A DNA stretch of 28,944 bases from NCBI GenBank assembly GCA_964535095.1, contig CAZHSU010000001.1:1-28944 (forward strand), in the 5' to 3' direction. Below the pieces are notes generated by a model. It was not told where the DNA came from, searched no databases, and saw nothing but the letters and a program-made list of their open reading frames with translations. Shown one piece after another: positions 2,892 through 23,107 of the stretch (positions are counted from its first letter, which is position 1; each line of letters starts with the position of its first letter). The stretch is from an uncultured Candidatus Saccharibacteria bacterium. Its GTDB lineage: Bacteria; Patescibacteriota; Dojkabacteria; SC72. Position numbers and translations under genes: made by a program.

Positions 2892-3986
2892 CTAAGGTCT
2901 TAACTGCTCCCAAAGTTCTTTTTCTGCTCTGCTTAGTCTCCTTGGGATTTCAATACGAACTCTTACATAATGATCTCCCCTCTCCTTAGGAGAATTGAGT
3001 AATGGTGCTCCCTTACCCTTTAATTTGAAGATTGTACCTGGTTGTGTACCCTTAGGAATTTTCAATTTCACTTCTTCAAAAATTGTTTCAACCTTAACAA
3101 CATCTCCTAGAACAGCAGATGATACTGGAATCTCCAAATCTGTATAGATATTATTCCCTCTTCTTTCAAACTTAGGAGATGCCTCGACATTAACCTCTAT
3201 ATACAAATCCCCTGTTGCTCCACCATTCTTACCTGCATTACCACCTCCTCTAAATCTCAAAATCATGCCCTCATATGCTCCTGCTGGAACCTTAATACTA
3301 ATATCTTCTTCCACATACTTAAGACCACTCCCTTCACACTTACTACATGGGTCCTCTATAACAGAACCTGTGCCTCCACAATTCTGACATACTCCCATAA
3401 TTGCAATCTGTCCAAAGACCGTATTTCTCACTTGTTGACTCTGTCCAGTTCCCTTACATACAGGACACACTTTTTTCTTGCCAGATTCACTTCCTGAGCC
3501 TTTACATTTATCACATCTGTCTTCTTTCCTCACCTTTAGCTTAAAATCTCCACCTTTCATAGCTTCTTCAAAACTCAAGCTAATCCTATATCTAATATCT
3601 GAACCTGTATTATCCACCTGTCTGCCTTCTCCACCAAAGTCAAAACCACCTCCCATACCACCTGGCATACCTCCTCCAAAGAAGGTATTGAAAATATCTC
3701 CCATATCAAAGGGAGCTCCACCATTAAAATCCGTGTATCCACCAGAAGAACCTGGGTTAAAACCTGCTGTTCCAGCATGTCCAAATTGGTCGTAAGCAGA
3801 CCTCTTAGAATCATCGGAAAGCACCTCATATGCCTCTTGCACCTCCTTAAATTTCTCCTCAGCATCAGCCTCCTTATTCACATCAGGATGATATTTCTTT
3901 ACCAATTTTCTATATGCTTTTTTAATATCTGAAGCAGAGGATTTTTTATCAACCCCCAAAACTTCATAATAATCTCTTTTTTCCAT
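2892..3986 (-). CDS. dnaJ: Molecular chaperone DnaJ
   Basis: J-domain with HPD, G/F-rich linker, four CxxCxGxG zinc-finger repeats ([32 protein letters not shown]), C-terminal substrate domain. Confidence 0.98.
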
Positions 3987-3994
3987 AGCGAGTC

Positions 3995-4003
3995 ATTTTA
4001 GCA
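3995..4003 (-). promoter_or_regulatory. Extended -10 element of dnaJ (near-leaderless)
   Basis: Minus strand TG-C-TAAAAT followed by 8 nt and the dnaJ ATG. Confidence 0.6.
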
Positions 4004-4024
4004 GAACTCCCTCCCAATTGCTAG
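3998..4024. promoter_or_regulatory. CIRCE-like (HrcA operator) inverted repeat
   Basis: TTAGCAGAA-N9-AATTGCTAG. It has the 9-9-9 geometry of TTAGCACTC-N9-GAGTGCTAA with the outer TAGCA/TGCTA arms intact and the inner triplets diverged. Lies 11 nt upstream of a heat-shock gene. Confidence 0.6.
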
Positions 4025-4035
4025 CCCCTCCACCA

Positions 4036-4239
4036 ACCTGGTCGGAGTATTTTGATTGATACAACAAACCTACTCATACATATCCACAGTTTTTTTAATA
4101 CACTAGAAGATATAAAAAATTGCAATCAAAATTAGAAATGCTTTTGCGATACAATATCCATTTCCCTATAATAATGTTAAAATACCATGAAAAGCTACAA
4201 TTATGCCAGTCCCAATAAGCATTTCTAAGCCGACCAGGT
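4036..4239. other. 204-nt element of three nested perfect inverted repeats (three-way junction); candidate structured ncRNA or miniature element
   Basis: ACCTGGTCGG 4036-4045 / CCGACCAGGT 4230-4239; TTTTGATTG 4050-4058 / CAATCAAAA 4123-4131; TTAGAAATGCTT 4132-4143 / AAGCATTTCTAA 4217-4228. The pairing is directly visible; the function is unknown. Confidence 0.6.
4144..4172 (+). promoter_or_regulatory. Candidate sigma70 promoter inside the structured element
   Basis: TTGCGA-17 nt-TATAAT. Confidence 0.45.
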
Positions 4240-4243
4240 CTGT

Positions 4244-4271
4244 TTTACTTCTTTTCAAAATCTGCTATATT
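4244..4271 (+). promoter_or_regulatory. Leaderless-type promoter of the sortase gene
   Basis: TTTACT-16 nt-TATATT with TG extension (TGCTATATT), 7 nt before ATG 4279. Confidence 0.55.
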
Positions 4272-4278
4272 AGAAGAT

Positions 4279-5067
4279 ATGGAAAATCCATGGAATATTG
4301 AAACAGAAAACACAAAAAAGATAAAAAATACAAGAATCGTAATCTCTGTGGTGCTTGCTTTTGCAGGATTAGGAATAATTGCTAGTCAAGTAATACCATT
4401 AGTTAAGTCATATATAGATGGTGAAATAATGCAGATGCGAGGGGAAATTAAGGTAGAGCCCGTACCAGAGTCATACAAGAAATTCATTGAAAATGAATTC
4501 GCATACTATGACCCTGGTGGTAGTTATTTTTCCAACCTCGCCAAACAACTCGGCGTCCTAGGAATCTCCTCATATGCAAGCGAAAATGCAGGGTACAAAA
4601 CAAGCAAAATAGACACCTCATATGACAAAAATATGTACATAACAATAGATAGTGTTGGGATTAAAAATATTAAAATTTCTGCAAATGTAGAAAGCAAAGA
4701 TGAAGAGGTATACAACAAATTTCTCAAATCTGGAGTTGCACACTTTAGAGGTACCCCACTCCCCGGAGATGGTGGAAACTCATTCATATACGGACATAGT
4801 GCGGTAGAAGCCTTTTTCAGCAGACACAAAGACTATCCAGAAACAATTTTTTCGAGGCTAGACAATATAGATGTAGGACAAAAAATCCAGATACAAAAAG
4901 ATGGTGAGATTCTAGAATATGTTGTCCGAAACAAGAAAATTGTAGAGCCAACAGATTTCACAATACTCCAACCAATTCAAGACAAAGAGAATGTAACTCT
5001 CATGACATGTTGGCCACTTGGAATTGGTACAAAAAGGCTAATTGTCGTAGCAGAGAGAAAGATTTAA
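4279..5067 (+). CDS. Sortase family transpeptidase
   Basis: N-terminal TM helix; catalytic His (FIYGHS), TLMTC and Arg (TKRLIV) in sortase order. Confidence 0.92.
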   Translation: MENPWNIETENTKKIKNTRIVISVVLAFAGLGIIASQVIPLVKSYIDGEIMQMRGEIKVEPVPESYKKFIENEFAYYDPGGSYFSNLAKQLGVLGISSYASENAGYKTSKIDTSYDKNMYITIDSVGIKNIKISANVESKDEEVYNKFLKSGVAHFRGTPLPGDGGNSFIYGHSAVEAFFSRHKDYPETIFSRLDNIDVGQKIQIQKDGEILEYVVRNKKIVEPTDFTILQPIQDKENVTLMTCWPLGIGTKRLIVVAERKI

Positions 5068-5083
5068 GTTAAAAAACAAAAAT

Positions 5084-6511
5084 ATGTCAGATTTTTTTAA
5101 TAGTGTGCCAGATACTTCAATAAGTACAGCAGAACCAATAAAGAAAAAAACCAAATTCCCTATCCCTATTCTAATATTAGGAGGTGTTGTCATTCTGGTC
5201 ATAATCCTTCTAGTTGTCCTCTTTATTTCCAATGCAAATAAAAATAAAAATGGAAATCCAAGCCCAAATCCAAGTAACTCATCAACCAGCAGTAGCAGTA
5301 ATGCAGACTTAATATATTGGGGATTATGGGAACCGAAAGAAGTAATGGAACCACTAATAAAAGAATTTGAGGAGAAAAATCCTGGAATAAAAATCCAATA
5401 TTCCCAACAGAGATACTCTAAATACGAGTCAAGAGTATATACAAGACTACAACAAGCAACATCATCTTCAGAACCAGCTCCAGATATCATAAGAATACAT
5501 AATACTTGGGTACCTAAATTCAGCAAATACATAACCTCCGTTCCTACCAATGTAATGAGCAGAGAAGAGTATTCACAAAAATTCTACCCAACCGCATTGG
5601 AAGATTTCACAGGTAAAGATGGAAAACTCTATGCAATTCCATGGGAAATTGATGGATTAATGGTCTTCTACAACAAGCAACTCTTACAAAAAGAAGGTGT
5701 CCAAGAGCCACCAAAGGACTGGGACTCATTCATTGAATTAGCATACAAACTTACAAAGAAAAGTAGCTCTGGGAATATAGAGCAGTCTGGCTTGGCAATT
5801 GGAACAGCAAAGAATATACAGCACTCCGCAGAAATACTCTCCTTCCTCTTACTCCAAGAAGGAGTCGATATTATTGATGAAACAAGAACAACGGTTTCTT
5901 TAAATAATTCCAAAGCTATTAGTGTATTTGAAACTTACACAAACTTCGCAAAAGGGGAAGATGCAATATGGACATCCTCTCTAAGAAGCGATTTGGAAAT
6001 GTTCTATTCAGGAAAACTTGCAATGATGATTGCACCAAGTTGGAGAGCATTTGACATCATAAATTCAAATTCTACAATAGAATTTGGAACTGCTTCACTC
6101 CCACAATTAACAGCAAATGAAAACAAAATATATTACTCCACATATTGGGGAGATACTGTAAGTAAAAGTAGCAAAAACCCAGAAGCTGCATGGAAATTCA
6201 TTGCATTCCTTTCAGAAAAAGAGCAACAGAAGAAGATTTTCTCTAATTCCATAACAGCAGGACAGAGAGCATTTGGAGAACCTTACTCACTAGTTGAACT
6301 AAATAGCGAAATGAAGACAAAAGCATATATCAAACCTATTGCAGAGATGGCACCATATATGAAGTCATGGCAAATGGGTGATGAGACAAATGTAAAGACT
6401 TATTTGAATGAAGCAGTAACATCTATAATAGAAAGAAATACAAGAGTCAACACTGCTCTGAAGGATGCTGAAACCAAAATTAATGAACAACTTGCACAAA
6501 CGAACAAATAA
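5084..6511 (+). CDS. Extracellular solute-binding protein (carbohydrate ABC-type fold), TM-anchored
   Basis: TM helix IPILILGGVVILVIILLVVLFI, Asn/Ser linker, then SBP motifs (LIYWGLW, PDII, LYAIPWEIDGLMVFYNKQLL, PPKDWDSF, FYSGKLAMMI, AAWKFIAFL). No lipobox Cys. Confidence 0.88.
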   Translation: MSDFFNSVPDTSISTAEPIKKKTKFPIPILILGGVVILVIILLVVLFISNANKNKNGNPSPNPSNSSTSSSSNADLIYWGLWEPKEVMEPLIKEFEEKNPGIKIQYSQQRYSKYESRVYTRLQQATSSSEPAPDIIRIHNTWVPKFSKYITSVPTNVMSREEYSQKFYPTALEDFTGKDGKLYAIPWEIDGLMVFYNKQLLQKEGVQEPPKDWDSFIELAYKLTKKSSSGNIEQSGLAIGTAKNIQHSAEILSFLLLQEGVDIIDETRTTVSLNNSKAISVFETYTNFAKGEDAIWTSSLRSDLEMFYSGKLAMMIAPSWRAFDIINSNSTIEFGTASLPQLTANENKIYYSTYWGDTVSKSSKNPEAAWKFIAFLSEKEQQKKIFSNSITAGQRAFGEPYSLVELNSEMKTKAYIKPIAEMAPYMKSWQMGDETNVKTYLNEAVTSIIERNTRVNTALKDAETKINEQLAQTNK

Positions 6512-6529
6512 ACAGTATTATATTGTATA

Positions 6530-9154: not shown

Positions 9155-9158
9155 AAAT

Positions 9159-9167
9159 TGGTATAAT
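9159..9167 (+). promoter_or_regulatory. Extended -10 of alaS operon (leaderless-type)
   Basis: TG-G-TATAAT, 8 nt before ATG 9176. Confidence 0.7.
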
Positions 9168-9175
9168 CCAACACT

Positions 9176-10918
9176 ATGGAAAAACTCTCGTACAATCAAA
9201 TTTGGCAAAAATATATAGCTTTCTTCGAAAGACATAATCACAAGGCAATCCCAAGTGCCCCACTCGTCCCAGAAAATGACCCCTCAGTACTCTTCGTAAA
9301 TGCTGGAATGTTCCCATTAGTCCCATTCCTAAACGGACAAGAACACCCAGAAGGAAACAGACTAGTAAACATGCAAAGATGTATAAGAACGGGAGATATT
9401 GAAGAAGTTGGAGATCCATACCACTGCACAGCATTCATAATGCTAGGCAACTGGTCCCTAAACGATTACTTCAAAAAAGAAGCCATTGAAATGACAACAC
9501 AATTCTTCGTCGAAGAACTCGGCCTAGATATCCACAGAATGTATGCAACAATATTTGAAGGAGAAGAAAACATACCAAAAGACACAACATCCATAGAAGC
9601 ATGGAAAGAAGTCTTTGCAAAATATGGAATAGAGGCAAAAGAGAATCAAGAAATAAGGCCAAAGGGGAGAGATGAAAACTGGTGGGGATTAGAATCCGGA
9701 GGACCATGTGGACCCGACTCAGAAATCTTCTACGATGCCGGAGATGGAGAATATGTAGAGATTGGAAACAATGTATTCATGGAGTACCAAAAAATTGGTG
9801 GCAATGTTCTTCCTCTTGGAAGACACAATGTAGACTTCGGGGGTGGACTAGAAAGACTCACCGCCCTACTCCAAGGAGTAGACTCTGTATATGAAACGGA
9901 TATATACAAACCAATAACAGAGAAAGTAAAAGAACTCTCAGAGATAGACAACATAGAATCCCAGAGAATCGTTGTAGATCACATCAAAGCGGCTACATGG
10001 ATAATAATGGATGGTGTAGAACCATCAAGAAGCCAGCAAGGATACATATTAAGAAGACTAATCAGAAGAGCCATCAGACATGGCAAAAAGCTAGGGATAA
10101 CCAAACCCTTCACAAAAGAAGTAGCAGCAGTAGCAATAGAACAATTCAAAGAAACATGGCCAAATCTCCAAACAGAAAAAAATCACATACTCCAAGTAAT
10201 TGAAGAAGAAGAAAAAAAGTTTGCAAAAACTCTAGACACAGGACTAAGAATACTAGAAAAAATCTTAGATAAAAATGGCAAAGTAACAGGAAAAGATGCA
10301 TTCCTTCTCTACGAAACATATGGACTTCCAATAGAACTCACAGAAGAAATCTTAAATGAGAAGAATGTAGAATTAGAAAATATTGAAGATTTCAAAAAAG
10401 CAGAAGAAGAACACCAAGAAAAATCTAGAACTGCTTCAAAAGGACTCTTCAAAGGTGGACTTGCAGACACATCTGAGATGTCTACAAAATATCACACAGC
10501 ATCACACCTCCTTCTCGCAGCCCTAAGAAAAGTATTGGGGGAACATGTATACCAAAAAGGAAGCAATATCACTCCAGAAAGATTGAGAATGGACTATCCA
10601 AATGAAACCCTCATGAGTGAAGAGCAGGTAAAAGAAGTAGAAAAAATGGTAAATGAACAGATAGAGAAAGGACTACCCGTCGCACACAAAGAGATGCCAA
10701 AAGAAGAAGCATTGAAATTAGTACCTTTTGCAGCATTTGCAGAAAAATACCCTGACATTGTAAATGTCTACTACATCGGAGATGAAGAAAACCCATTCTC
10801 CATGGAAATCTGTAACGGGCCACATGTAGAAAACATTAAAACCTTGGGAAAATTCAAAATCTCCAAACAAGAAAATGTTGGCTCAGGGATAAAAAGAATT
10901 AAAGCAATATTAGAATAA
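9176..10918 (+). CDS. alaS: Alanine--tRNA ligase, compact 580-aa form
   Basis: Class II motifs (PSVLFVNAGMFPL, QRCIRTGDIEEVG, MLGNWSLNDYFK, VDFGGGLERL, QGYILRRLIRRA) plus editing core HTASH...EICNGPH. Confidence 0.97.
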   Translation: MEKLSYNQIWQKYIAFFERHNHKAIPSAPLVPENDPSVLFVNAGMFPLVPFLNGQEHPEGNRLVNMQRCIRTGDIEEVGDPYHCTAFIMLGNWSLNDYFKKEAIEMTTQFFVEELGLDIHRMYATIFEGEENIPKDTTSIEAWKEVFAKYGIEAKENQEIRPKGRDENWWGLESGGPCGPDSEIFYDAGDGEYVEIGNNVFMEYQKIGGNVLPLGRHNVDFGGGLERLTALLQGVDSVYETDIYKPITEKVKELSEIDNIESQRIVVDHIKAATWIIMDGVEPSRSQQGYILRRLIRRAIRHGKKLGITKPFTKEVAAVAIEQFKETWPNLQTEKNHILQVIEEEEKKFAKTLDTGLRILEKILDKNGKVTGKDAFLLYETYGLPIELTEEILNEKNVELENIEDFKKAEEEHQEKSRTASKGLFKGGLADTSEMSTKYHTASHLLLAALRKVLGEHVYQKGSNITPERLRMDYPNETLMSEEQVKEVEKMVNEQIEKGLPVAHKEMPKEEALKLVPFAAFAEKYPDIVNVYYIGDEENPFSMEICNGPHVENIKTLGKFKISKQENVGSGIKRIKAILE

Positions 10919-10919
10919 T

Positions 10920-11372
10920 ATGCAAATAGAATACCCAATCCTAGCAATAGACTACGGAGACAAACACTTTGGCTTAGCAATTTCGGATTCAAAAGGAATC
11001 ATTGCCTCCCCTCTTGAAGTAATTTCCATCACAAAAAACAAAAACAGAGAAACCATTATTGAAGAAATACTAGAATTAGCCAATGAATACAGAGCAAAAA
11101 GCATTTTAGTTGGAATGCCAGAGGCTTTTATCCAATCTCAACAAAAAACTGTACAAAAGATTCAAAATTTCATAAAACTATTATCCCAAAAGACAAAACT
11201 CCCCATAATCACCTATGATGAGAGTTTCTCTACAACTCGAGCTCAAAATGTGCTAATATCTTCGGGACAAAACACAAAAGGTTCCAGAAGAAAAATAGAC
11301 AAAATCGCAGCAACTGTGTTTTTACAAGAATTTTTAAATTCAGAAACCAAAAACAATGAAAAAAACTCTTAG
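10920..11372 (+). CDS. ruvX: YqgF/RuvX family RNase H-fold protein (pre-16S rRNA maturation nuclease)
   Basis: LAIDYGDKHFGLAISD, VGMP, YDESFST, IDKIAATVFLQEFL; alaS-ruvX-mltG order. Confidence 0.93.
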   Translation: MQIEYPILAIDYGDKHFGLAISDSKGIIASPLEVISITKNKNRETIIEEILELANEYRAKSILVGMPEAFIQSQQKTVQKIQNFIKLLSQKTKLPIITYDESFSTTRAQNVLISSGQNTKGSRRKIDKIAATVFLQEFLNSETKNNEKNS

Positions 11373-12345
11373 TATTGTTCTAATAATCGCAATAATAGCA
11401 GGGATTGGTTTACTCATAGATTACAGAAGTTCCTTGGATAAGCAGAATTCGAAAGATTCAGAAAAGGTCACATTTCAAATAACAGAGGGTGAGGCTGTTG
11501 ATACAATATTAGGAAATTTGGTAGATGAAGGGCTTTTGAGAAAAAGATTTGTAAAATATACAAAAGTATTTCTAAAAGCTTCAAAAATGGAGGGACAGAT
11601 ACAGGCAGGGACATATAATATTCCGAAGAATTTAAGTATCAAAGAATTGATAACAACATTGCAGAACGGGAAGAATCAAGATATTTGGGTAACTATTCAT
11701 GAAGGTTTAAGAAAAGATGAAATTGCAAAGATTTTAAATGATGAATTATCCCAAATTGATACAGCATCCTTTTCAGTGGATGAATTCCTCACACTCACAA
11801 CAGATTCTGAATTTATAAAAACATTAGAATTAGAAATAGATATAAAAGATTTGGAGGGTTTTCTCTTCCCAGATAAGTATGCACTAGACCCAAATAGTAC
11901 TACAAAATCCGTAATTAAAGTATTGGTAGATAATTTCAAGAAAAAAGTTGGTGAGGAGTACACATACGATGATATTATCATGGCAAGTATTGTTGAAAGG
12001 GAAGGATATACAGAGCAAGACAGACCCATTATTGCAGGACTTCTTTTGAAAAGAATAAGGGAGGGATGGTTACTACAAGCAGATGCAACACTACTCTACC
12101 CTGTCAAAGATTGGAAGCATGTGATTACACTGCAAGATAAAGACAATGATAATCCATACAACTCATACAAGAGACCTGGATTACCACCAACTCCAATCTG
12201 CAATCCAGGGCTACAAGCAATTAAGGCAACACAGAATCCAGAAGAAACTCCATACTACTTCTACATTCATGACAACGATGGAGTACCACACTATGCAGTA
12301 ACCAACGAAGAACACAATATTAATGTAAATAAATATCTTAGATAA
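11356..12345 (+). CDS. mltG: Endolytic transglycosylase MltG (YceG family)
   Basis: N-terminal TM, LEGFLFPDKY, MASIVERE (catalytic Glu), LQADAT, NPYNSYKRPGLPPTPICNPG, YYFY. Confidence 0.95.
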   Translation: MKKTLSIVLIIAIIAGIGLLIDYRSSLDKQNSKDSEKVTFQITEGEAVDTILGNLVDEGLLRKRFVKYTKVFLKASKMEGQIQAGTYNIPKNLSIKELITTLQNGKNQDIWVTIHEGLRKDEIAKILNDELSQIDTASFSVDEFLTLTTDSEFIKTLELEIDIKDLEGFLFPDKYALDPNSTTKSVIKVLVDNFKKKVGEEYTYDDIIMASIVEREGYTEQDRPIIAGLLLKRIREGWLLQADATLLYPVKDWKHVITLQDKDNDNPYNSYKRPGLPPTPICNPGLQAIKATQNPEETPYYFYIHDNDGVPHYAVTNEEHNINVNKYLR

Positions 12346-12354
12346 TATTAGTTA

Positions 12355-12360
12355 TATACT
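12355..12360 (+). promoter_or_regulatory. -10 element of LCP-holA (leaderless-type)
   Basis: TATACT, 6 nt before ATG 12367. Confidence 0.55.
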
Positions 12361-12366: not shown

Positions 12367-13800
12367 ATGGTACTAGATATAGACCTTAACGAAGGAGAGC
12401 TAAAAAATACACGACCTCAACCACCAAGAAGAGAAAATATTCCCCTTCAAGGCAAAAAGGAGAAGAAAAAGAGACCTTTTGTGAAAGGGCTACTCCTCTT
12501 TTTCCTATTTCTTCTCATTGGGGGAATTGGATTTGCTTCTTGGAAGGGTGTATCAATATCAAATGCTATTGGATTGAAGTTTAACCCAATAGATTTGCTT
12601 AAAGAAGAGAAACCTGAGCTTAAAAAAGATGCCACAGGGAAACATACAAATGTCCTCATTGTCGGAGTAGACAGTAGATCTGGTAATGATATTTCAAATA
12701 CAGATGTCCTCATTGTTGCTTCATATAACTACGAAACAAAAAATGTCACTATGATTTCGATTCCTAGAGACTTCCATGTAGAAATAGACCCCAAGACAAA
12801 ATGGTTCGGCAGAATTAACTCTGTATACTCCTCTGCGGAAAACAGAACAAAAGGGAGTGGTTTCCAAGCATTACAAAAAGCGGTGGAAGATGTAACAGGA
12901 TTGGAAACTCAATACTATGTATTAGTAGACTTCAAAGCTTTTGTAGAGATAATAGATAAAGTAGGAGGAGTGAATGTTAATGTAGAAAATAGTTTTACAG
13001 ACTATCAATATCCTGAAGGATTAGGATGGAAGACAGTAAAGTTCGTAGCAGGACCACAACTAATGGATGGAGAAACCGCATTAATATACTCCAGATCTAG
13101 ACACTCCAGCATGAATAATGAAGGTACCGACTATGCTAGAGCCAAAAGACAACAGAAAGTAATAGTGGGACTCAAGGATAAAATAACAGGTGATGAGACA
13201 CTCAAAGATCCACAGAAAGTTATGGGAGTAATATCTTCTCTTACAAGCAATATCAAAATCTCTGAGTTCACTATTACAGATATAAGAGCAGGTTTAAATC
13301 TTCTAGAAGAATTTACCTCGCAAAATGGCAAATCATACTCTTTTGTCTTAGACCCATACTCAGGAGGACAAGAACTGATAGAAACAAAGACAATGCCAAG
13401 TGGAGCATTCGCAATTGGCCCAAAAGAAGGTCTTGGGAAATATGAAAATATACTTAAATATGTAGGGGAAATAGATAAAAATCCTAAACTATTTTCCGAA
13501 AAACCCATTATCTATGTCCATGATATCGGCTTAGGATATGCAGAAACGACAAAGAAAGTAAAAGAGATGAGAGAAGCGAACCCATATATTCAAATAATTC
13601 AATCAACTACACTATTCAGAGACAAAGAAGGAGATTATGTATACTCCAATGTAGAAGATTATCCTGAAACAATAAATGTATTTGCAAAATATTTAAAAAC
13701 AAGCAATAAAACAAAACCAGAATTCATCACTTCCACAACAAACAGAGAAGGAGTTATAATACTCTTAGGGAAACCAACTCAACTAAGTAATGAAAATTAG
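12367..13800 (+). CDS. LCP (LytR-CpsA-Psr) family glycopolymer transferase
   Basis: TM helix, NVLIVGVDSR, TDVLIV, MISIPRD, GRINSVY, YYVLVDF, ALIYSRSRH, DYARAKRQQ. Confidence 0.93.
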   Translation: MVLDIDLNEGELKNTRPQPPRRENIPLQGKKEKKKRPFVKGLLLFFLFLLIGGIGFASWKGVSISNAIGLKFNPIDLLKEEKPELKKDATGKHTNVLIVGVDSRSGNDISNTDVLIVASYNYETKNVTMISIPRDFHVEIDPKTKWFGRINSVYSSAENRTKGSGFQALQKAVEDVTGLETQYYVLVDFKAFVEIIDKVGGVNVNVENSFTDYQYPEGLGWKTVKFVAGPQLMDGETALIYSRSRHSSMNNEGTDYARAKRQQKVIVGLKDKITGDETLKDPQKVMGVISSLTSNIKISEFTITDIRAGLNLLEEFTSQNGKSYSFVLDPYSGGQELIETKTMPSGAFAIGPKEGLGKYENILKYVGEIDKNPKLFSEKPIIYVHDIGLGYAETTKKVKEMREANPYIQIIQSTTLFRDKEGDYVYSNVEDYPETINVFAKYLKTSNKTKPEFITSTTNREGVIILLGKPTQLSNEN

Positions 13801-14741
13801 TGAAATATAAACTATATCATGGATCTTCTCACTTCCTCTCTTTAGAGGCTACACACGAGCAGATAGATTCAATAAAAAGCAAAAAAGAAGGATTAGAAGT
13901 ATTAACTATAAATGCGGATACTCTAGATTCCCAATCAATACTAGATGCACTAACATCACAAAATCTTTTCGTATCTGAAAGAATACTCTTCATCAAAAGA
14001 CTTTACAGAAACAAGAAAAAAGAAGAATTAATCCCTGCCATTACTAAAATATTGGAAAATTCAACATCAAAAGATACTGTAATCATATGGGAAGACCAAA
14101 AAATCAAATCTAACACAAAATATTACAAATTTTTTGGAAAAGACAAGAAGGTTGAGGGTTTTGATGAATTAAACAAAAGAACCTTCTTCACATGGTTGAG
14201 AGAAGAATTAAAAAAACAGGGGATGAAAATGGAAGCAGTCGCTACAAAAGAGATTGCAGAGAGAACAAATTATGACCCAGAAAGATGTGCAAATGAATTA
14301 AAGAAATTAAAGCTAATGGTTGATGATAACGAGATAAAGAAAGAAGATGTAGAGAAATTAATTACGAATACATTAGAAAGAGATATATGGGGGTTAATAG
14401 AATCAATAAATGAAGGAGACACAAAGAAAAGTACAAGAATTTTAGAAAAATTGCTTTCTCAAGCTGTAGATGTCAATTTCATCATCTCAATGATTGCAAG
14501 AAATTTAAGATTAATTACATTAACAAAATTTCTAGTTAATGAGGGAAAATCATCAAGTGAGATTGCATCCATTCTAAAAATAATCCCATTCACAGTCCCA
14601 TCATTGATAAGGGCATCCAAAGATTACTCCGAAAAGAAAATTACATACCTTTATACAAAACTTTCAAATCTAGACTACCAGATAAAAAGAGGGCTCATAG
14701 AGCCAAAACTAGGAATCACCCTACTCTCTTCCGTATTATAA
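13800..14741 (+). CDS. holA: DNA polymerase III delta subunit
   Basis: QNLFVSERILFIK, ELKKL, IWGLIESI, LSNLDYQIKRG pattern; about 310 aa; GTG start overlaps the LCP stop. Confidence 0.85.
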   Translation: MKYKLYHGSSHFLSLEATHEQIDSIKSKKEGLEVLTINADTLDSQSILDALTSQNLFVSERILFIKRLYRNKKKEELIPAITKILENSTSKDTVIIWEDQKIKSNTKYYKFFGKDKKVEGFDELNKRTFFTWLREELKKQGMKMEAVATKEIAERTNYDPERCANELKKLKLMVDDNEIKKEDVEKLITNTLERDIWGLIESINEGDTKKSTRILEKLLSQAVDVNFIISMIARNLRLITLTKFLVNEGKSSSEIASILKIIPFTVPSLIRASKDYSEKKITYLYTKLSNLDYQIKRGLIEPKLGITLLSSVL

Positions 14742-14751
14742 AATTTCATCA

Positions 14752-14780
14752 TTGACAGAAAACAGTTATTTTATTAGACT
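14752..14780 (+). promoter_or_regulatory. Sigma70 promoter of the 14825 gene
   Basis: TTGACA-17 nt-TAGACT. Confidence 0.65.
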
Positions 14781-14824
14781 TTACTAAGGCTAATACTGCT
14801 AATTTTGGGAGTACCGAAGACATT

Positions 14825-16633: not shown

Positions 16634-16634
16634 G

Positions 16635-17045
16635 CTATAATTCGCTGAGAAGAAATTCCAACGGCACACCATTTTTACCATAACCTTTTTTCTCAGAATT
16701 AATCAGGAAATAATACTTTGATTTTGTCAGAAGCTTATCAAGCGTAACTTCATGCTTATCAGATTTTAGATTTCCACCAATATCAAAACCAACCAAATCC
16801 ATATTATTTCTGCTAGTACCATACTGAACAAAGCCAGCACACTTCCCTATTGTCTTCCAGCTAATAACAACAGAAAACTCCTTCTCCCCCTTCTCAATAA
16901 AAAGATTGTAGGGTGTACACTCGTCCTGCTCCTGATAAAGAGAATCAAAACTAACTGCCTTATCCTTTCTCAAAAGCAGAAAAACAGATGACATTGTCAA
17001 GACAAGAGCAACAGTTCCAACTATTATTAAAATATTCTTATTCAC
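16635..17045 (-). CDS. TM-anchored protein with fibronectin type III / purple-acid-phosphatase-N-like beta-sandwich
   Basis: TM helix then VVISWKT...FVQYGTS...HEVTLDKL...YYFLINS; GTG start overlaps the upstream stop. Confidence 0.65.
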   Translation of the reverse strand: MNKNILIIVGTVALVLTMSSVFLLLRKDKAVSFDSLYQEQDECTPYNLFIEKGEKEFSVVISWKTIGKCAGFVQYGTSRNNMDLVGFDIGGNLKSDKHEVTLDKLLTKSKYYFLINSEKKGYGKNGVPLEFLLSEL

Positions 17046-17496
17046 CTGCTCTATTCACTAAAATATAATTCTTCTGGGAGGAAGAATGCTCCCCATCACT
17101 CACACGAAGAGTATATGAGATAGTATCATTGTCCCCAATATTAAAAGGAACAGTACCTACAACACCCATATCGACAAGCCTCAACCAATCAGGAGCCTCA
17201 ACTAATTCCAGAACCAAAGAATTAGGATCACTATCTGAATCCTCGATTCTAGGATAATACTCATAAACCTCACCCTCTACAACCTCCAAAGGAGCTACAG
17301 AAACAATATATGGAGCACCATAAGTATTCTCTGCTCCTGTCAAAATACTCTCCTCATTAGTTGAACCTAAAACACCTTCTTCCTCCTTCTCTGGTACATT
17401 CTCTCTATTCAAAAACAGATAAACAAAGCCAAAAGAAAAGACAAAAAGAAGAACTAATGAGCTAATAACTATCTTTACTTGCCTACTTCTCTCCAT
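17038..17496 (-). CDS. TM-anchored protein with one Ig/cadherin-like domain
   Basis: TM helix; APYIVSVAP..VVEGEVYEY..RIEDSDSD...APDWL...YTLRVSDG resembles a domain in the 6530 protein. Confidence 0.7.
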   Translation of the reverse strand: MERSRQVKIVISSLVLLFVFSFGFVYLFLNRENVPEKEEEGVLGSTNEESILTGAENTYGAPYIVSVAPLEVVEGEVYEYYPRIEDSDSDPNSLVLELVEAPDWLRLVDMGVVGTVPFNIGDNDTISYTLRVSDGEHSSSQKNYILVNRAGE

Positions 17497-17502
17497 ATCC
17501 AG

Positions 17503-17552
17503 AGTTTACCACAAAAAAGAATGTTTACAAACCTTACTTTAACATATATAAT
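17503..17552. promoter_or_regulatory. Overlapping divergent promoters for rpsT (+) and the 17496 gene (-)
   Basis: Plus: TTTACA 17524-17529, 17 nt, TATAAT 17547-17552. Minus: TTGTAA 17530..17525, 16 nt, TAAACT 17508..17503 with TG extension, 6 nt before ATG 17496. Confidence 0.6.
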
Positions 17553-17588
17553 AGCCTAATATAGTTATATTAATTACATTCAGTTAAG

Positions 17589-17885
17589 ATGCCAAATTTA
17601 AAAACATCAATAAAAGATCTCAGAACAGCTAATAGAAGACAGGTTGTCAATAATAGGCTAAGAGAGAGAATAAAAAGAGCTACAAAGAAACAGAGAACAT
17701 TAGTAGCACAAGGAAATATTGAAGAGGGAGAAAAGAACCTAAAAAATGTTTACAAAGTTTTAGATAAAGCAGCTAAAAAGAACGTTATCAAAAAAGGTAA
17801 GGCAAGTAGATTAAAGTCTAGACTTACCCAAAATTTAAACAAACTCGCCCAAGATAATGTCAAAACTTCTAAAAAGGACACTTAA
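17589..17885 (+). CDS. rpsT: 30S ribosomal protein S20
   Basis: MPNLKTSIKDLRTANRRQVVNNR...LDKAAKKNVIKKGKASRLKSRL. Confidence 0.95.
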   Translation: MPNLKTSIKDLRTANRRQVVNNRLRERIKRATKKQRTLVAQGNIEEGEKNLKNVYKVLDKAAKKNVIKKGKASRLKSRLTQNLNKLAQDNVKTSKKDT

Positions 17886-18405
17886 AATATCTGTCGCTCC
17901 TGCAATTCTTATGATTGCAGGGAAGCTATTAGGTATTGTACTTGCAAACATTCTATACAAGCTAGACTTTTTCATTGATAACCAAATTCAGGGAATATTC
18001 TCAATACAACTATACTACACAGATAGTATGACTACTCTTCTTGTAAACTCAGTTTCAAATCTAATAATGGTACTTGTTTTAGCAGTCCCTACCCTATACT
18101 TCATTATCAAGACATCGATATATCAATCGACATTTGAGAATCCAAGAACAATTGTAAAACTTACAAAATTTAATATGACAAATTGGATTACGAAAGACGA
18201 TTCTTCCTTTTTAATTATCTTCATCTGGACAGCATTCCTCGTCATTGCTTCCTTAGTCGTAGTTGCTCAAACAATACAGGGGAATTGTTATGAATGGGTT
18301 GGAATAATAGCAGGTGTCTTTGCAATTTTTGGAATTTGGGGAGCGATAAAGACATTTGAGATAGAAATTGATAAGATATATCCTAAGGAGGAATTATACA
18401 GATGA
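17857..18405 (+). CDS. Hypothetical membrane protein (about 4 TM)
   Basis: 182-aa ORF with four hydrophobic segments; overlaps rpsT by 29 nt; ATGA-coupled to the next gene. Confidence 0.7.
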   Translation: MSKLLKRTLKISVAPAILMIAGKLLGIVLANILYKLDFFIDNQIQGIFSIQLYYTDSMTTLLVNSVSNLIMVLVLAVPTLYFIIKTSIYQSTFENPRTIVKLTKFNMTNWITKDDSSFLIIFIWTAFLVIASLVVVAQTIQGNCYEWVGIIAGVFAIFGIWGAIKTFEIEIDKIYPKEELYR

Positions 18406-18956
18406 GTAAATCTAAAAAAACTTTACTACCACAAATTTTTGAACCATTAGCTATTGTTGCTGTTTTAGCTCTTTTTGCAATTCCTGTGCTTACAGTTATG
18501 AATCTTTCCCCCATTACACAGGGTAACAAATCCGTAAATGTTCTCGGTGCTGCTTCTTCTCCAAATAGTATAAATATTGAGCTATTGGATGAAGATGAGG
18601 AAGTTTTTTCTGCTGGACAGGTAATGAGAGAGGGAGATAGTAAGTGGGTGTATATGGTAGATGTTTTTGCAAGAGAGAAAGAGAGAGAGTATTCTAAGGA
18701 GGTTTTCCGAATTAGGAACAGAAGTAACACGAGACAAACTGTTGTTGTTAGTGGTTATACGGATAGTACAAGTAATTCAAACTTTTCTCTTAAGATGGAT
18801 AATGAGTGGTATGTGTTGAGAGATTATAGTAGAGAGATGTATGAGAGAGAGATTATCTTAGAACCTAATGCAGTAAAGACTATTGAACTTTCAACATATA
18901 GCGAGAGTAATATCCTTTTTAAGGAGACTTTTACTGTTGATATTGTGGTGAAATAG
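18402..18956 (+). CDS. Hypothetical TM-anchored extracellular protein
   Basis: One N-terminal TM followed by a beta-rich soluble region; ATGA overlap start. Confidence 0.7.
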   Translation: MSKSKKTLLPQIFEPLAIVAVLALFAIPVLTVMNLSPITQGNKSVNVLGAASSPNSINIELLDEDEEVFSAGQVMREGDSKWVYMVDVFAREKEREYSKEVFRIRNRSNTRQTVVVSGYTDSTSNSNFSLKMDNEWYVLRDYSREMYEREIILEPNAVKTIELSTYSESNILFKETFTVDIVVK

Positions 18957-18980
18957 CAATTTTCGTGTTTTTAATTAAAC

Positions 18981-19217
18981 CATAGGGTCTCTCCTAGATC
19001 TGTCCCTCAAAAAGATACAACTATTCGCATTGTACTAAGGTTTCCTAACCCACAGCATCGTTAACTTTCTTCTTTTTCTCAACTTTTTTCAGAAGCAACC
19101 ACACAGGGTCCGTCCCAGATCTGACCCTCAAAAAGGTCCAACTATTCGCATTGTACTAAGGTTTCCTAATCCACAGCATCATTAACTTTCTTCTTTTTAT
19201 CAACTTTTTTCAGAAGC
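18981..19217. repeat. Tandem direct duplication, period 121 nt (two 116-nt copies)
   Basis: 18981-19096 vs 19102-19217; hand alignment gives 10 mismatches in 116 nt, 7 of them in the first 37 nt. Confidence 0.95.
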
Positions 19218-19288
19218 CACAAAGCCAAATATCCTATTAAACAGGCAGAAAGGGTTGGAAAACAGGGGTCAGATCTGGGACAGACCCC
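19105..19288. repeat. Inverted pair of REP-like GC-rich palindromes (third, decayed copy at 18984-19007)
   Basis: AGGGTCCGTCCCAGATCTGACCCT (19105-19128) and AGGGGTCAGATCTGGGACAGACCCC (19264-19288) are reverse complements over the GGGTCYGTCCCAGATCTGACCC core. Each folds with GGGTC/GACCC arms. Confidence 0.85.
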
Positions 19289-19310
19289 AAAATAAATCCA
19301 AAAGCCTCTC

Positions 19311-19339
19311 TTCTAAAAACCTATATATTTAGGTATAAT
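19311..19339 (+). promoter_or_regulatory. Leaderless-type promoter of lepA
   Basis: TTCTAA-17 nt-TATAAT, 7 nt before ATG 19347. Confidence 0.65.
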
Positions 19340-19346
19340 CTCAAGC

Positions 19347-21170
19347 ATGTCTGAAACAAAATTAAACAAAATACGAAATTTCTCCATCATCGCTCACATA
19401 GATCATGGGAAATCTACACTAGCAGATAGGATGTTGGAGGCTACAAACAACCAAGCAATCGCAAGGAAAAAGAAAAACAGGCTATTGGATAAACTAGACT
19501 TAGAACAAGAAAAGGGGATTACAATAAAACTACAAGCATGCAAAATGCAATGGAAAGATTACGAACTAAACCTCATTGACACACCAGGGCATGTAGATTT
19601 CTCTTACGAAGTCTCCAGATCCCTTGCAGCCTGTGAATCCGCCCTACTACTCGTAGATGCAAGCCAAGGAATACAAGCACAGACAATTTCAAATACAAGA
19701 AAAGCATTAGATCTAGGATTAACACTCATACCTGTTCTAAACAAAATAGATTTACCAAATGTAAATATTGAAGAAAGGGAGAAAGAGATAGAAGCACTTT
19801 TGGGATTTAAAAAGGAGGAAATAATAAAAGTATCTGGAAAAACTGGAGAAGGTGTAGAGAAATTGCTAGATGCAATAATTGAGAAATCCCCTCCCCCAGT
19901 TGGAGATTCCAATGCATCACTAAAAGCTCTCGTCTTTGACTCTTTCTACGATGAACATAGGGGTGTGGTTATTGCAATTAGGCTTTTTGATGGAAAGATT
20001 AAATATATTCCAGGGAAAGCAGAAGAGCTAAATATGATTCAGAGAAAACAGAGCTTCAAACCAACAGAAATTGGTATCTTTAACCCAGATTTAGAAGAGA
20101 CAGAAACACTCAGTGCGGGAGAAGTAGGATATATTGCAACTGGAATGAAGGACATAGGTCTTTTTAGTGTTGGAGATACTATTTCAGACAAAAAAGATAC
20201 AGAAGCACTCTCTGGATATCAAGTGCCTGTACCCAATATGTATGCAACATTCTTCCCAACGAATACAGAAGATTATGAAAATCTTAAAATTGCACTGACA
20301 AAACTCTCTCTCAACGATGCTTCTCTTACATTTGCAGATCAGAGATCTAATCTGCTTGGTGCAGGATTTAGATGTGGATTCCTTGGACTATTGCATATGG
20401 AAATTGTACAAGAGAGACTGGAAAGAGAGTACGATATAGATTTAATCATTACAGCACCTACTGTTGAGTATCAATTAACAAAAACAGATGGTACAGAGAT
20501 GGTCATTCAAGCTCCTCACGAGCTTCCAGATCCTGCAAGTATTAAGGAAATTAGAGAGCCATGGGTGAGAGCAGAAATTATGACTCCAGAGAAATATTTG
20601 GGAGATTTAATGAGTTTGTGCCAAGTGAAGAGAGGTGTATATGTGAATACTAAATATTTGAATGCGAATATTAGTGATGTGCAATTGGCAGACCAATATA
20701 TTGTTTTGGAATATGATATTCCGTTAGTTTCTCTCATTTCAAGTTTTTTTGACCAGATGAAGAATATTTCTAGTGGTTATGCTTCTATGGAATATGAATT
20801 CATAGATTATTTCCCTGCGGATATTGTGAAAGTTTCTGTTTTGGTTAATCATGAAGAGGTTTCTGTTTTGGATTTTTTGGAGGTTAGAGAGGAGGCAAGG
20901 GCGAAGTCTGTGAAGCTCTTAGAGGTTATGAAGACTGTTATTCCTAGACAACAGTTCCCTATTCCCATTCAGGCAGCTATTGGGTCTACAATCATTGCTA
21001 GAGAGGATGTGAAGGCATTTAGGAAGGATGTTACTGCGAAGTTGTATGGTGGAGACTATTCTAGGAAGAAGAAGTTGTTGGAGAAGCAGAAGAAGGGTAA
21101 GAAGAGATTGAAACAGATTGGTCAGGTTAATATTCCTCAGGATGCATTTTTAGCTATTTTGAAGACATAG
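19347..21170 (+). CDS. lepA: Elongation factor 4 (LepA)
   Basis: IRNFSIIAHIDHGKSTLADR, LNLIDTPGHVDF, NKID, GFRCGFLGLLHMEIVQERLERE, C-terminal KKLLEKQKKGKKRLKQIG. Confidence 0.98.
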   Translation: MSETKLNKIRNFSIIAHIDHGKSTLADRMLEATNNQAIARKKKNRLLDKLDLEQEKGITIKLQACKMQWKDYELNLIDTPGHVDFSYEVSRSLAACESALLLVDASQGIQAQTISNTRKALDLGLTLIPVLNKIDLPNVNIEEREKEIEALLGFKKEEIIKVSGKTGEGVEKLLDAIIEKSPPPVGDSNASLKALVFDSFYDEHRGVVIAIRLFDGKIKYIPGKAEELNMIQRKQSFKPTEIGIFNPDLEETETLSAGEVGYIATGMKDIGLFSVGDTISDKKDTEALSGYQVPVPNMYATFFPTNTEDYENLKIALTKLSLNDASLTFADQRSNLLGAGFRCGFLGLLHMEIVQERLEREYDIDLIITAPTVEYQLTKTDGTEMVIQAPHELPDPASIKEIREPWVRAEIMTPEKYLGDLMSLCQVKRGVYVNTKYLNANISDVQLADQYIVLEYDIPLVSLISSFFDQMKNISSGYASMEYEFIDYFPADIVKVSVLVNHEEVSVLDFLEVREEARAKSVKLLEVMKTVIPRQQFPIPIQAAIGSTIIAREDVKAFRKDVTAKLYGGDYSRKKKLLEKQKKGKKRLKQIGQVNIPQDAFLAILKT

Positions 21171-21198
21171 TGGATTTAATCCCCTTTTCTAGAAATCC

Positions 21199-21227
21199 TC
21201 TACAATCTCTCCCCTATAAGATATAAT
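21199..21227 (+). promoter_or_regulatory. Near-leaderless promoter of recF
   Basis: TCTACA-17 nt-TATAAT, 9 nt before ATG 21237. Confidence 0.6.
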
Positions 21228-21236
21228 CAATATTGC

Positions 21237-22292
21237 ATGATACAGAAAATAAAGTTAACAAATTTCAGGAAATTTGAGAATTTGGAAATAGATATAGAAA
21301 AAGATATTGTCATATTACATGGAGATAATGCGGTTGGTAAAAGCACAATTCTAGAATCCATATACCTAGTAACAAATGGAAAATCCCCATGGGCTGCCAC
21401 AGATGAATACATTTCAACAACACAGAAAGAAGAAACACCATTCAGTAGAATTGAAATAACGACAAATGAAAATGAAGATGAAAAAAAGTACTCATACTAC
21501 AAAACAAATTCTAGGAGAATGTTAAAGATTAATGAAAAGAATGTACCAATAAAGAAGTTTTTTGAAGAAACAGCATCTACTATTTTTAATCCAGAAAAGA
21601 TTGAGATTTTAATGATCTCCCCAAGTAAAAGAAGAGAATTTTTAGATGAAATAATATCTACTCTAGATTACGAATATATCGAAACATTAAAACTATTTAG
21701 AAAAACATTACAACAGAGAAATGCATATCTTAAGAAACTTGCAAAACAATTCTACGAAAAGGGAATAATTGCGAGAAATGATACTCAGTTAAATTTCTGG
21801 ACAAATGAATTTTTGAAACAGGCAGAGAAGATACAGCAACAGAGAGAGGAGCTGTCTAAAAGGATGAAGACTAAAGACTTGAAGATTGAATATATCAAAT
21901 GTAATGGAGATATTGCTCTTGAAGATGCTTTGGAATCCTCGAAGAAAAGAGATATTGCTACTGGATATACAAATATTGGACCACACAGAGATGATTGGGA
22001 GTTAATTAACGGAAAGAATATAAAGAAATATGGTTCTAGAGGAGAAAAAAGATTATCCATTGGAAAGTTAATATTTGAGGTGCAGAAGATAATGAAGAAA
22101 GAACTTGGGTACTACCCTATTCTTCTTCTTGATGACATTGCTTCAGAATTGGATAAAAAGAATACTGCTGAGATATTTAAACCTGAGATATTAAACAAAC
22201 AACAAACATTCATTACAATTATTAACTACAAAAACCTACCAAAGGACATTATTAAAAATGCTCAATTAGTAGATATGAATTCTTTTAAATAA
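21237..22292 (+). CDS. recF: DNA replication and repair protein RecF
   Basis: Walker A GDNAVGKS, SPSKRREFLD, QQRNAYLK, IGPHRDD, signature SRGEKR, Walker B LLLDDIASELD. Confidence 0.9.
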   Translation: MIQKIKLTNFRKFENLEIDIEKDIVILHGDNAVGKSTILESIYLVTNGKSPWAATDEYISTTQKEETPFSRIEITTNENEDEKKYSYYKTNSRRMLKINEKNVPIKKFFEETASTIFNPEKIEILMISPSKRREFLDEIISTLDYEYIETLKLFRKTLQQRNAYLKKLAKQFYEKGIIARNDTQLNFWTNEFLKQAEKIQQQREELSKRMKTKDLKIEYIKCNGDIALEDALESSKKRDIATGYTNIGPHRDDWELINGKNIKKYGSRGEKRLSIGKLIFEVQKIMKKELGYYPILLLDDIASELDKKNTAEIFKPEILNKQQTFITIINYKNLPKDIIKNAQLVDMNSFK

Positions 22293-23020
22293 TTCTTTAT
22301 CTTCCTCTGCTTAAACTTCTTAGGAAAAAATTCAATTCTTCCTTTCTTAGAATTTTCTGCCAACCTCTTAAAATCTGGTTGGTGACTTGCTAATTTCATA
22401 TATATTAATTGAAGATAATAGAAGAATTTGTTTAATATTCTTACAAAAATATTAACTTCTTTCTCAGATTTAATATTTGTAATTAAATTTTCTTTCTTAA
22501 CTCCATATTCTGTCATTAACCATTTATTCTGGGAAAAAACATAATTAATATATTTTTCATTATAAATTGGGACTAAATACATCAATTCATTAAAATTGAA
22601 GATATCAGAATCAAAAACTAAACCTCTCTCCTCTGCAATTAGATTCAAGCAGAATTTATCTTTCACATTCTTATCCCCTTTAACCCTTATTTTCCTTAAA
22701 AAAATGTTTCTAATCTGCACCAAAGCTCTATACAACCACATAGTTCCATTTCTTACAACAATAAAGAGATCTATATCGTCTTCTTCCTTCGCAAAACCAC
22801 TTCCAACAGAACCAGAGATTCCAACAAACTTAACAAGCTTAAAAATTAATAGAAATTTAAGATTCTCTTTTGCGATTCCAATCTTCTCCTTAACATAGAT
22901 ATTCTCGTTCTTCACAACTTCCTCATTGTATGATTTTCCCCATATTCTAATACTTTCTTCATCTGTAATACCTCTTCCAAAGAGTGAACGAAACTGTTCT
23001 AGTTTTTTGAAATTCTCCAT
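22262..23020 (-). CDS. Pol-beta superfamily (MNT-like) nucleotidyltransferase-domain protein
   Basis: VKFVGISGSVGSGFAKEEDDIDLFIV (GS plus DxD). Start placed at ATG 23020 because TATAAT lies 6 nt upstream. Confidence 0.75.
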   Translation of the reverse strand: MENFKKLEQFRSLFGRGITDEESIRIWGKSYNEEVVKNENIYVKEKIGIAKENLKFLLIFKLVKFVGISGSVGSGFAKEEDDIDLFIVVRNGTMWLYRALVQIRNIFLRKIRVKGDKNVKDKFCLNLIAEERGLVFDSDIFNFNELMYLVPIYNEKYINYVFSQNKWLMTEYGVKKENLITNIKSEKEVNIFVRILNKFFYYLQLIYMKLASHQPDFKRLAENSKKGRIEFFPKKFKQRKIKNYLKEFISTN

Positions 23021-23026
23021 ATTTCT

Positions 23027-23096
23027 ATTATATTGTTTTCTTCCCTCATCTACCACTAATATTTTACTTCATATTCTGGTAATATGTAGATATAAT
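23027..23096. promoter_or_regulatory. Divergent promoters for the nucleotidyltransferase (-) and the PrgI/VirB4 operon (+)
   Basis: Minus TATAAT 23032..23027. Plus TTCATA 23068-23073, 17 nt, TATAAT 23091-23096, 11 nt before ATG 23108. Confidence 0.6.
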
Positions 23097-23107
23097 AGAA
23101 ACTGCCA

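Follow-up and report, generated by a model that had tools for sequence, protein, structure and literature searches.

Frequent leaderless transcription is known from the GeneMarkS-2 group C genomes of Actinobacteria and Deinococcus-Thermus (Lomsadze et al. 2018, PMC6028130), where a Pribnow box lies 6–8 nt from 25–50% of operon-first starts, AUG is the preferred start codon, and leadered and internal genes use Shine-Dalgarno (SD) sites. In Bacteroidia the anti-SD is kept and hidden by the ribosomal proteins bS21, bS18 and bS6, and the SD of rpsU serves its autoregulation (Jha et al. 2020, PMC7797042); further accounts describe rpsU or rpsR as keeping a strong SD for this autoregulation (McNutt et al. 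2023, PMC9976891; PMC13000453). Some Parcubacteria have lost the anti-SD, i.e. the CCUCCU motif (Tsurumaki et al. 2022, PMC9297842). Here we describe a 28,944-nt stretch of DNA (the window; contig CAZHSU010000001.1 of GenBank assembly GCA_964535095.1, positions 1 to 28,944) and the metagenome-assembled genome (MAG) to which it belongs, in which -10 promoter hexamers lie a few nucleotides before many start codons and SD sites occur at background frequency. The best-supported explanation, to which we assign a probability of about 0.7, is that around a quarter of the genes give rise to leaderless mRNAs. A literature search recovered no paper linking Patescibacteria, the candidate phyla radiation (CPR) or Saccharibacteria with leaderless or SD-free expression; leaderless-rich genomes and SD-blind Bacteroidia are already known, and it is the combination, and the lineage in which it occurs, that is new.

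The MAG comprises 497,527 bases in 72 contigs (36% GC, 70% complete), of which the window is one. Pfam searches with the window proteins recovered DnaJ, a sortase, a solute-binding protein, AlaS, RuvX, YceG/MltG, an LCP protein (LytR_cpsA_psr), HolA, bS20, LepA, RecF, a nucleotidyltransferase-like protein and a PrgI-family protein, in agreement with the names given in a preliminary description of this DNA, and scans of the window for Rfam families and tRNAs gave no matches. The window LepA shares 74–76% identity with proteins from MAGs labelled Candidatus Dojkabacteria or Saccharibacteria, and the organism is therefore a Patescibacterium (CPR); its genome is small, and its nearest named relatives are Candidatus Dojkabacteria. 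Communities from bioreactors, wastewater or manure contain it, with more than 85% of its words recovered. Genes were called on the whole MAG with a simple, crude caller of our own that combines open reading frames (ORFs) with codon usage, each start being set at whichever of ATG, GTG or TTG comes first behind a stop (the longest ORF), a rule that takes no account of the -10 motif. This gave 423 genes in total and 169–170 operon-first genes, and a hierarchical classification was applied to 349 genes. As a control, 100 kb of Escherichia coli K-12 was passed through identical code.

At operon-first starts, TAnnnT with a spacer of 5–8 nt to the start codon was present in 65 of 169 genes versus 34.3 in dinucleotide-preserving shuffles (z 6.4), exact TATAAT in 16 versus 2.4 (z 9.1), and the extended form TGnTAnnnT in 22 versus 1.5 (z 18). 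Over all 423 genes the corresponding counts were 128 versus 78 (z 6.2), 35 versus 5.3 (z 13.7) and 46 versus 3.7 (z 21). The preliminary description had proposed comparing TAnnnT with an AT-matched background, and the motif is thus enriched over it. Its counts at spacers 5, 6, 7 and 8 before 170 first genes were 18, 30, 9 and 15, as against about 8 per position farther upstream, giving a sharp peak at a spacer of 6 nt. In the E. coli control TAnnnT was found in 3.8% of starts versus 9.2% of control windows. Expectation-maximization (EM) fits over spacers 4–9 converged on TGnTATAAT at a spacer of 6, assigned to a fraction of 0.25 of the full gene set, both in this genome and in a second genome of the same genus (G005); the sharp motif emerged only in these two all-gene fits, and the fractions for small subsets and shifted null windows were unstable and were left unused. 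A strong -10 at 5–8 nt was counted in 96 genes genome-wide. Its frequency falls from 23% at first candidate starts to 8.8% at later ATGs within 40 codons and to 1.9% at deep in-frame ATGs, and from this gradient the signal is tied to real starts, with some of the longest-ORF starts being too long.

Several further features of these sites are those of sigma-70 promoters. When the starts were aligned on the hexamer, T occupied 57–75% of the sites at position -3 and G 38–48% at position -2 relative to it, which are the extended -10 positions. In the first genes so aligned, T, T and G were favored at -23 to -21, corresponding to a -35 element at the canonical spacing of 17 bp. TTG at 16–18 bp was present in 8 of 45 sites, versus 1–3 in shifted controls, and the promoters are thus mainly of the extended -10 type. 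A pyrimidine was found at -1 in 73% versus 54%, and ATG was the start codon in 94% versus 81%. The distance from a -10 box to the transcription start (+1) is canonically 6 nt, so that a spacer optimum of 6 nt has +1 coincide with the A of the AUG. Furthermore, rpsU, which is clearly leadered in the genomes of this genus, is served by TGnTATAAT as well, there about 27 nt ahead of its ATG, which identifies the motif as the promoter of the lineage.

The sites are also conserved between close relatives. Among 76 pairs of same-genus orthologues with aligned N-termini (identity 68% in amino acids and, ungapped, 45% over -50 to -16), a strong -10 was present in both members of 17 pairs, in ours only in 6, in the other only in 1 and in neither of 52 (Fisher 4e-11). 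Eleven other Patescibacteria were sampled with the same pipeline (160–346 kb each), and among the Patescibacteria so sampled the genus, family and order of the window show a -10 at the start while SD stays at background or close to it. The signal was seen in G005, G074 and G022 and more weakly in G021, and one genome of a further family (G033) resembles the pattern of the window lineage. SD use is clear in G058, G046, G071 and the first genes of G054, for which EM returned AAGGAG-type motifs. Given these mixed patterns, the trait is lineage-specific within the phylum. RNA evidence comes from metatranscriptome run X18. Its deepest contig for the window (record 7) is 304 nt long at depth 24.7, aligns with no mismatch and spans 17591-17894, that is, rpsT from +3 to 9 nt beyond its stop. 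This is an assembler contig and not a map of 5' ends, and its extent matches that expected of a leaderless, monocistronic rpsT mRNA. Two runs labelled transcriptomic, X19 and X20, were flagged as probably DNA (95–99% match) and were excluded from the RNA evidence. Taken together, the TG extension, the TTG at 17 bp, the pyrimidine at -1, the preference for AUG, the genus-level conservation and the one RNA contig are the bases on which we consider the leaderless interpretation of the -10/ATG geometry to be well supported.

SD-free expression is solid. SD core 4-mers at spacers of 3–12 nt were found before 7.1% of genes, as compared with 7.5% in a window shifted 20 nt upstream, and were at background in first and internal genes alike; the same pipeline gave 35% versus 2.5% in E. 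coli. Anti-SD pairing at or below -7 kcal/mol was predicted for 3.6% of genes versus 4.6% in the control (E. coli 15.9% versus 1.2%), and the mean hybridization profile lacks a trough, staying at about -1.6 kcal/mol between flanks of -1.2 to -1.75, whereas E. coli dips to -4.25 and the Patescibacterium G058 to -3.26 kcal/mol. Within the window the preliminary description had found well-spaced AGGAGG sites to be essentially absent, and this holds: the sole well-placed site of the AGGAGG type is an AAGGAGG at 18385-18391, located 10 nt before the ATG at 18402 within the 3' end of the 17857 gene (-10.6 kcal/mol). The 16S tail, whose inspection had also been proposed, could be read in relatives, the 16S gene of the organism itself being absent from the 72 contigs of the assembly. 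Eleven full-length 16S genes were examined from relatives, 5 belonging to the same genus, and every one terminates in ...GAATTACCTCCTTTCT, CCUCC (CCTCCT in the gene) being intact. Like the anti-SD-lacking Parcubacteria, this organism belongs to the same phylum-level radiation, has a reduced ribosome and leaves SD pairing unused, but the CCUCCU lost there is kept in 11 of 11 relatives here, and the case is therefore not the published Parcubacteria-type loss of the anti-SD. A four-domain S1 and bS21 are present across the order. We also noted that the 3' tail of the order's 16S (loci L001-L011) reads GAAUUACCUCCUUUCU as compared with GAUCACCUCCUUA in E. coli, the segment directly 5' of the anti-SD core consisting of A and U only.

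In the hierarchical classification a strong -10 at 5–8 nt accounts for 23% of the genes, abutting or overlapping starts (at most 5 nt) for 21%, an SD core for 3% and a weak TAnnnT only for 7%, with 45% carrying none of these. This suggests three modes of initiation. In the first, a sigma-70-type promoter, mostly of the extended -10 form TGnTAnnnT with a weak -35 TTG 17 bp upstream, would start transcription at the A of the AUG and yield a leaderless mRNA. About 23% of genes qualify strictly and perhaps 30–50% of operon-first genes would do so; the latter share, which may apply if weak boxes are missed and starts miscalled, equals the upper range given for Actinobacteria and Deinococcus (PMC6028130). 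Such promoters would also lie within gaps of 12–25 nt or in the 3' end of the preceding gene, so that many seemingly internal genes may have a leaderless start of their own. Same-strand gene pairs show genome-wide a secondary preference for intergenic distances of 17–22 nt, a gap with just enough room for TGnTAnnnT and a 6-nt discriminator, alaS and LCP (21 nt) being examples. In the second mode, about a fifth of the genes start within a few nucleotides of the upstream stop and could be reached by ribosomes that have just terminated. The third would serve the remaining 45% or so, including most genes of the ribosomal-protein operons, which lie behind A/U-rich, G-poor leaders devoid of SD. In the S10/spc operon (on contig C14) most genes begin 1–17 nt past the previous stop after A-rich, G-poor spacers, and most have neither a -10 box nor an SD, rplN showing only a weak GAGGAG core. 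Given that 45% of genes, most of the S10/spc genes among them, have neither signal, a third, SD-independent mode for leadered mRNAs is needed, and the natural candidate is loading, probably assisted by the four-domain S1, onto unstructured A/U-rich start regions.

The pattern accordingly shares with group C genomes the -10 box about 6–8 nt upstream of many first genes (here with spacer 6, z 6 to 21 and the EM motif TGnTATAAT), the preference for AUG and the overall statistical signature. It differs in that SD is at background in all classes of genes, in the affiliation of the organism (Patescibacteria with 36% GC rather than a high-GC phylum) and in the presence of similar promoters in very short gaps before internal genes. 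The junctions recall the translational coupling of model bacteria (ATGA, TAATG), with eight genes of the window and about 30% of same-strand pairs genome-wide starting -40 to +5 nt from the upstream stop; in model bacteria, however, there is usually an SD inside the upstream gene, and here there is none except before the 18402 gene.

The preliminary description had gone further and held that the organism relies mainly on 70S leaderless initiation together with re-initiation after termination, which in its strongest form would cover nearly all genes. The window lends itself to this view, as 9–10 of its approximately 26 genes have a strong -10 at 5–9 nt and 8 abut the upstream gene; moreover, miscalled starts hide some leaderless genes (8.8% of downstream ATGs versus the 1.9% baseline), and real -10 boxes that fall below the strict criterion go uncounted. 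The signatures of both components are indeed present genome-wide, at about 23% and 21%, but the word "mainly" does not stand: 45% of genes carry neither signal, most S10/spc genes lie 14–17 nt past the upstream stop with no -10 box, and same-strand abutting pairs amount to 30% where the same pipeline finds 21% in E. coli. We therefore regard near-complete coverage by these two routes as unlikely, and the 70S or 30S mode used on the predicted leaderless mRNAs, as well as any coupling at the junctions, as presumptive.

A second alternative is that the TATAAT-like hexamers are not promoters at all but an A/U-rich, non-SD ribosome-binding or enhancer signal in leadered or polycistronic mRNAs, comparable to that of GeneMarkS-2 group B. 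A genome of this kind must have some replacement for the SD, and exact TATAAT at 5–8 nt shows no preference for first genes (16 of 170) over closely packed internal ones (14 of 176). Set against this are three promoter traits for which no part in translation is known, namely TG at -15/-14, TTG with a 17-bp spacing and a pyrimidine at -1; a 6-nt optimum that coincides with the -10-to-+1 distance; an rpsT RNA contig with no upstream extension; and the TGnTATAAT about 27 nt before the rpsU ATG, where it acts as the promoter of the lineage. We hence consider a ribosomal signal quite improbable. The weakest alternative, an artefact of A/T-rich intergenic DNA and miscalled starts, could draw on the 36% GC of the genome and on the chance occurrence of TAnnnT in about 19% of 4-position windows, but it was tested and is not supported, and is practically negligible in view of the dinucleotide-preserving shuffles (z 6 to 21), the positional controls in the same intergenic regions, the 1.9% at deep ATGs, the E. 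coli control and the conservation in orthologues.

Some observations nonetheless weigh against leaderless expression of a quarter of the genes. The gene starts are longest-ORF calls from a MAG that is 70% complete and lacks its own 16S. The third class, 45% of the genes, has no defined signal, and a positional motif, (A)ATTAA, is accounted for neither by 16S pairing nor clearly by promoter position. Coupling is not shown to be special here, as the share of abutting pairs is near that of E. coli. Among family- and order-level orthologues, few in number, the gene-by-gene association of leaderless status was not significant, although the genome-wide signal persists. Upstream of lepA, one relative (L014) keeps TATAAT, 6 nt and ATG (~1460-1485), but in two others (L013, L015; ~1470-1500) 12 nt separate the box from the ATG, and the predicted leader is about 5 nt long; the promoter-to-start spacing therefore drifts between relatives. 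Finally, the rpsT contig was possibly truncated by the assembler, and the -10 closest to rpsT is weak (TACATT), better hexamers lying 17–36 nt upstream.

The (A)ATTAA motif ends 12–19 nt before the ATG, with a peak at 17–18, is near-absent beyond 22 nt, and is enriched across the order in the class with no other signal. It precedes isolated and packed genes alike, and an example in the window is found before ruvX at 10888-10893. Pairing with the GAAUUA of the lineage's 16S tail was rejected, since the hybridization profile of this segment is flat and 12–19 nt is too far for the register. That the motif is merely the upstream stop codon fits some cases, in which its distance equals the spacer at 17–18 nt, but the motif is found, too, where the upstream intergenic DNA exceeds 60 nt. 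As for its being the 5' end of short leaders transcribed from a -10 box farther upstream, such boxes cluster only weakly at 16–19 nt in two genomes, with 5–6 out of about 19 genes per genome.

Against the SD-free background, rpsU stands out. In 8 of 8 same-genus genomes (L250-L254, L257, L259, L260) it is preceded by TGnTATAAT, about 18 nt, AAGGAGGT, 3–5 nt and ATG; the promoter and the SD are invariant and the leader between them is variable, and the SD pairs with -11.2 kcal/mol in the six genomes scored. The organism's own rpsU (G000:C22:2-199) starts 1 nt from the end of its contig; an identical 66-residue bS21 is encoded in six other assemblies (L270-L275 at 240-312), and 6 of 6 have the same layout of promoter and AAGGAGGT. 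The perfect, conserved rpsU SD in this genus is a new finding. It is lacking in the other families of the order. Perfect, well-spaced SDs were otherwise found before some small membrane proteins and the 18402 gene of the window. A gene for an HU-like DNA-binding protein (G000:C24:3592-3864, minus strand) has a strong, well-spaced SD, AAAGGAGGT, and rpsA, encoding the four-domain S1 (G000:C23:3461-4729, plus strand), a weaker AAAGGAG (loci L268 and L269 for HU and rpsA); with about ten mostly short and slightly GC-richer genes (0.389 versus 0.354) they form a small SD-led set. A handful of genes (rpsU, HU and rpsA) appear to make use of the retained anti-SD, which would pair with their mRNAs, most notably that of rpsU.

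These features resemble those of Bacteroidia in that the anti-SD is kept, the genome is nearly SD-free, upstream regions are A-rich and G-poor, the rpsU SD is perfect and conserved, and the S10/spc genes and rpsR that were inspected are without SD (rplN and rpsA having a weak GGAG-type core). They differ in a bS21 whose C-terminus is very basic (KRKRRRRAAARRAR) and which has no detectable similarity to the Bacteroidia form, in an rpsR for which a Bacteroidia-style SD was looked for and none was found, and in a quarter or more of the genes being putatively leaderless. The traits of the Bacteroidia bS21, namely a less basic C-terminus and a Tyr54 stacking on A1534, are not those of this protein, and a search of the PDB with it returned chloroplast and Firmicutes bS21 as the best matches and no Bacteroidia chain at E up to 10. 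We also observed that bS18 (rpsR; G000:C4:4000-4152 region, L262, and same-genus L263-L266) has an acidic N-terminal extension of about 50 residues (MSEE...) ahead of the conserved domain. The parallel with Bacteroidia is one of function and not of membership. It raises the possibility, which we hold to be tentative and rather less probable than its absence, of an independently evolved SD-blind ribosome, whose intact anti-SD would normally be occluded with the involvement of bS21. Selection would then have removed SD sites and favored leaderless promoters and A/U-rich leaders, and ribosomes without bS21 would expose the anti-SD and translate rpsU, leading to autoregulation. A plainer alternative is that rpsU kept its SD for high or regulated expression while SDs decayed elsewhere in the genome. 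If true, such occlusion would be without precedent outside Bacteroidota and would employ a different, highly basic bS21.

Within the window, the hexamers and spacers reported in the preliminary description for dnaJ, sortase, alaS, LCP, the 17496 gene, lepA, recF, the nucleotidyltransferase and PrgI could each be located, with the TG extension at exactly the four sites reported (dnaJ, sortase, alaS and the 17496 gene), and the eight internal genes said to abut or overlap the upstream stop all do so (Table 1). The starts of DnaJ, LepA, RecF, AlaS and bS20 are sound, because their N-termini open with family-typical residues, that of DnaJ being the canonical start, and there is no earlier in-frame start. 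The longest ORF of the nucleotidyltransferase-like gene runs from a GTG at 23056, but its true start is likely the ATG at 23020, 12 codons inside. The mRNA predicted from the spacing before the PrgI-family gene is not strictly leaderless but has a leader that is very short. The gene for the 874-residue protein begins 18 nt from the end of the preceding gene. A second X18 contig, of 244 nt (18892-19135), extends from the end of the 18402 gene into about 180 nt of the intergenic region before lepA, and may represent a long 3' UTR or else a distinct RNA that spans a palindrome-rich stretch. One contig of X19 (probably DNA, 95–99% alike) at 3863-3961 skips 97 nt in the 5' part of dnaJ, its shorter side being 20 nt; it likely reflects a related strain or an assembly artefact.

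Table 1. Putative -10 hexamers and stop/start junctions in the window; distances run from the end of the hexamer to the start codon, or between the stop and start codons.
Feature	Coordinates	Strand	Detail
dnaJ, extended -10 TGCTAAAAT	3995..4003	-	8 nt to ATG 3986-3984
sortase, extended -10 TGCTATATT	4263..4271	+	7 nt to ATG 4279
874-aa protein, TATATT	6519..6524	+	5 nt to GTG 6530, 8 nt to ATG 6533
alaS, extended -10 TGGTATAAT	9159..9167	+	8 nt to ATG 9176; inside 21-nt intergenic gap
LCP (LytR_cpsA_psr), TATACT	12355..12360	+	6 nt to ATG 12367; inside 21-nt intergenic gap
17496 gene (152-aa membrane protein), extended -10 TGGTAAACT	17503..17511	-	6 nt to ATG 17496
rpsT (bS20), ORF 17589-17885	17575..17894	+	weak -10 TACATT, 8 nt to ATG 17589
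lepA, TATAAT	19334..19339	+	7 nt to ATG 19347
recF, TATAAT	21222..21227	+	9 nt to ATG 21237
nucleotidyltransferase-like gene, TATAAT	23027..23032	-	6 nt to in-frame ATG 23020
PrgI-family gene, TATAAT	23091..23096	+	11 nt to ATG 23108
alaS stop / ruvX start	10918..10920	+	gap +1 nt (TAATATG)
ruvX / mltG (YceG)	11356..11372	+	17-nt overlap (-17)
LCP stop / holA GTG start	13798..13802	+	1-nt overlap (-1; TAGTG)
17496 gene / 17045 gene	17038..17045	-	8-nt overlap (-8)
rpsT / 17857 gene	17857..17885	+	29-nt overlap (-29); 17857 start uncertain
17857 gene / 18402 gene, AAGGAGG and junction	18385..18405	+	4-nt overlap (-4; ATGA)
PrgI stop / 23967 gene start	23965..23967	+	gap +1 nt
23967-gene stop / VirB4-like start	24599..24602	+	gap +2 nt

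Start-site models for Patescibacteria assume SD use or a mixture of leaderless and SD-led genes. In a lineage that combines many leaderless genes with SD-less leadered ones, these would produce systematic miscalls of starts, of which the nucleotidyltransferase gene is a likely instance. The combination seen here, in which the anti-SD is intact, SDs go unused and rpsU is the one ribosomal-protein gene to carry a perfect, conserved SD, bears on how a minimal ribosome chooses its starts. It suggests that control of the anti-SD through bS21 may have had more than one origin. For cultivated Patescibacteria, the prediction is that expression constructs would be better designed with the ATG placed 6–7 nt past an extended -10 and not behind an SD.

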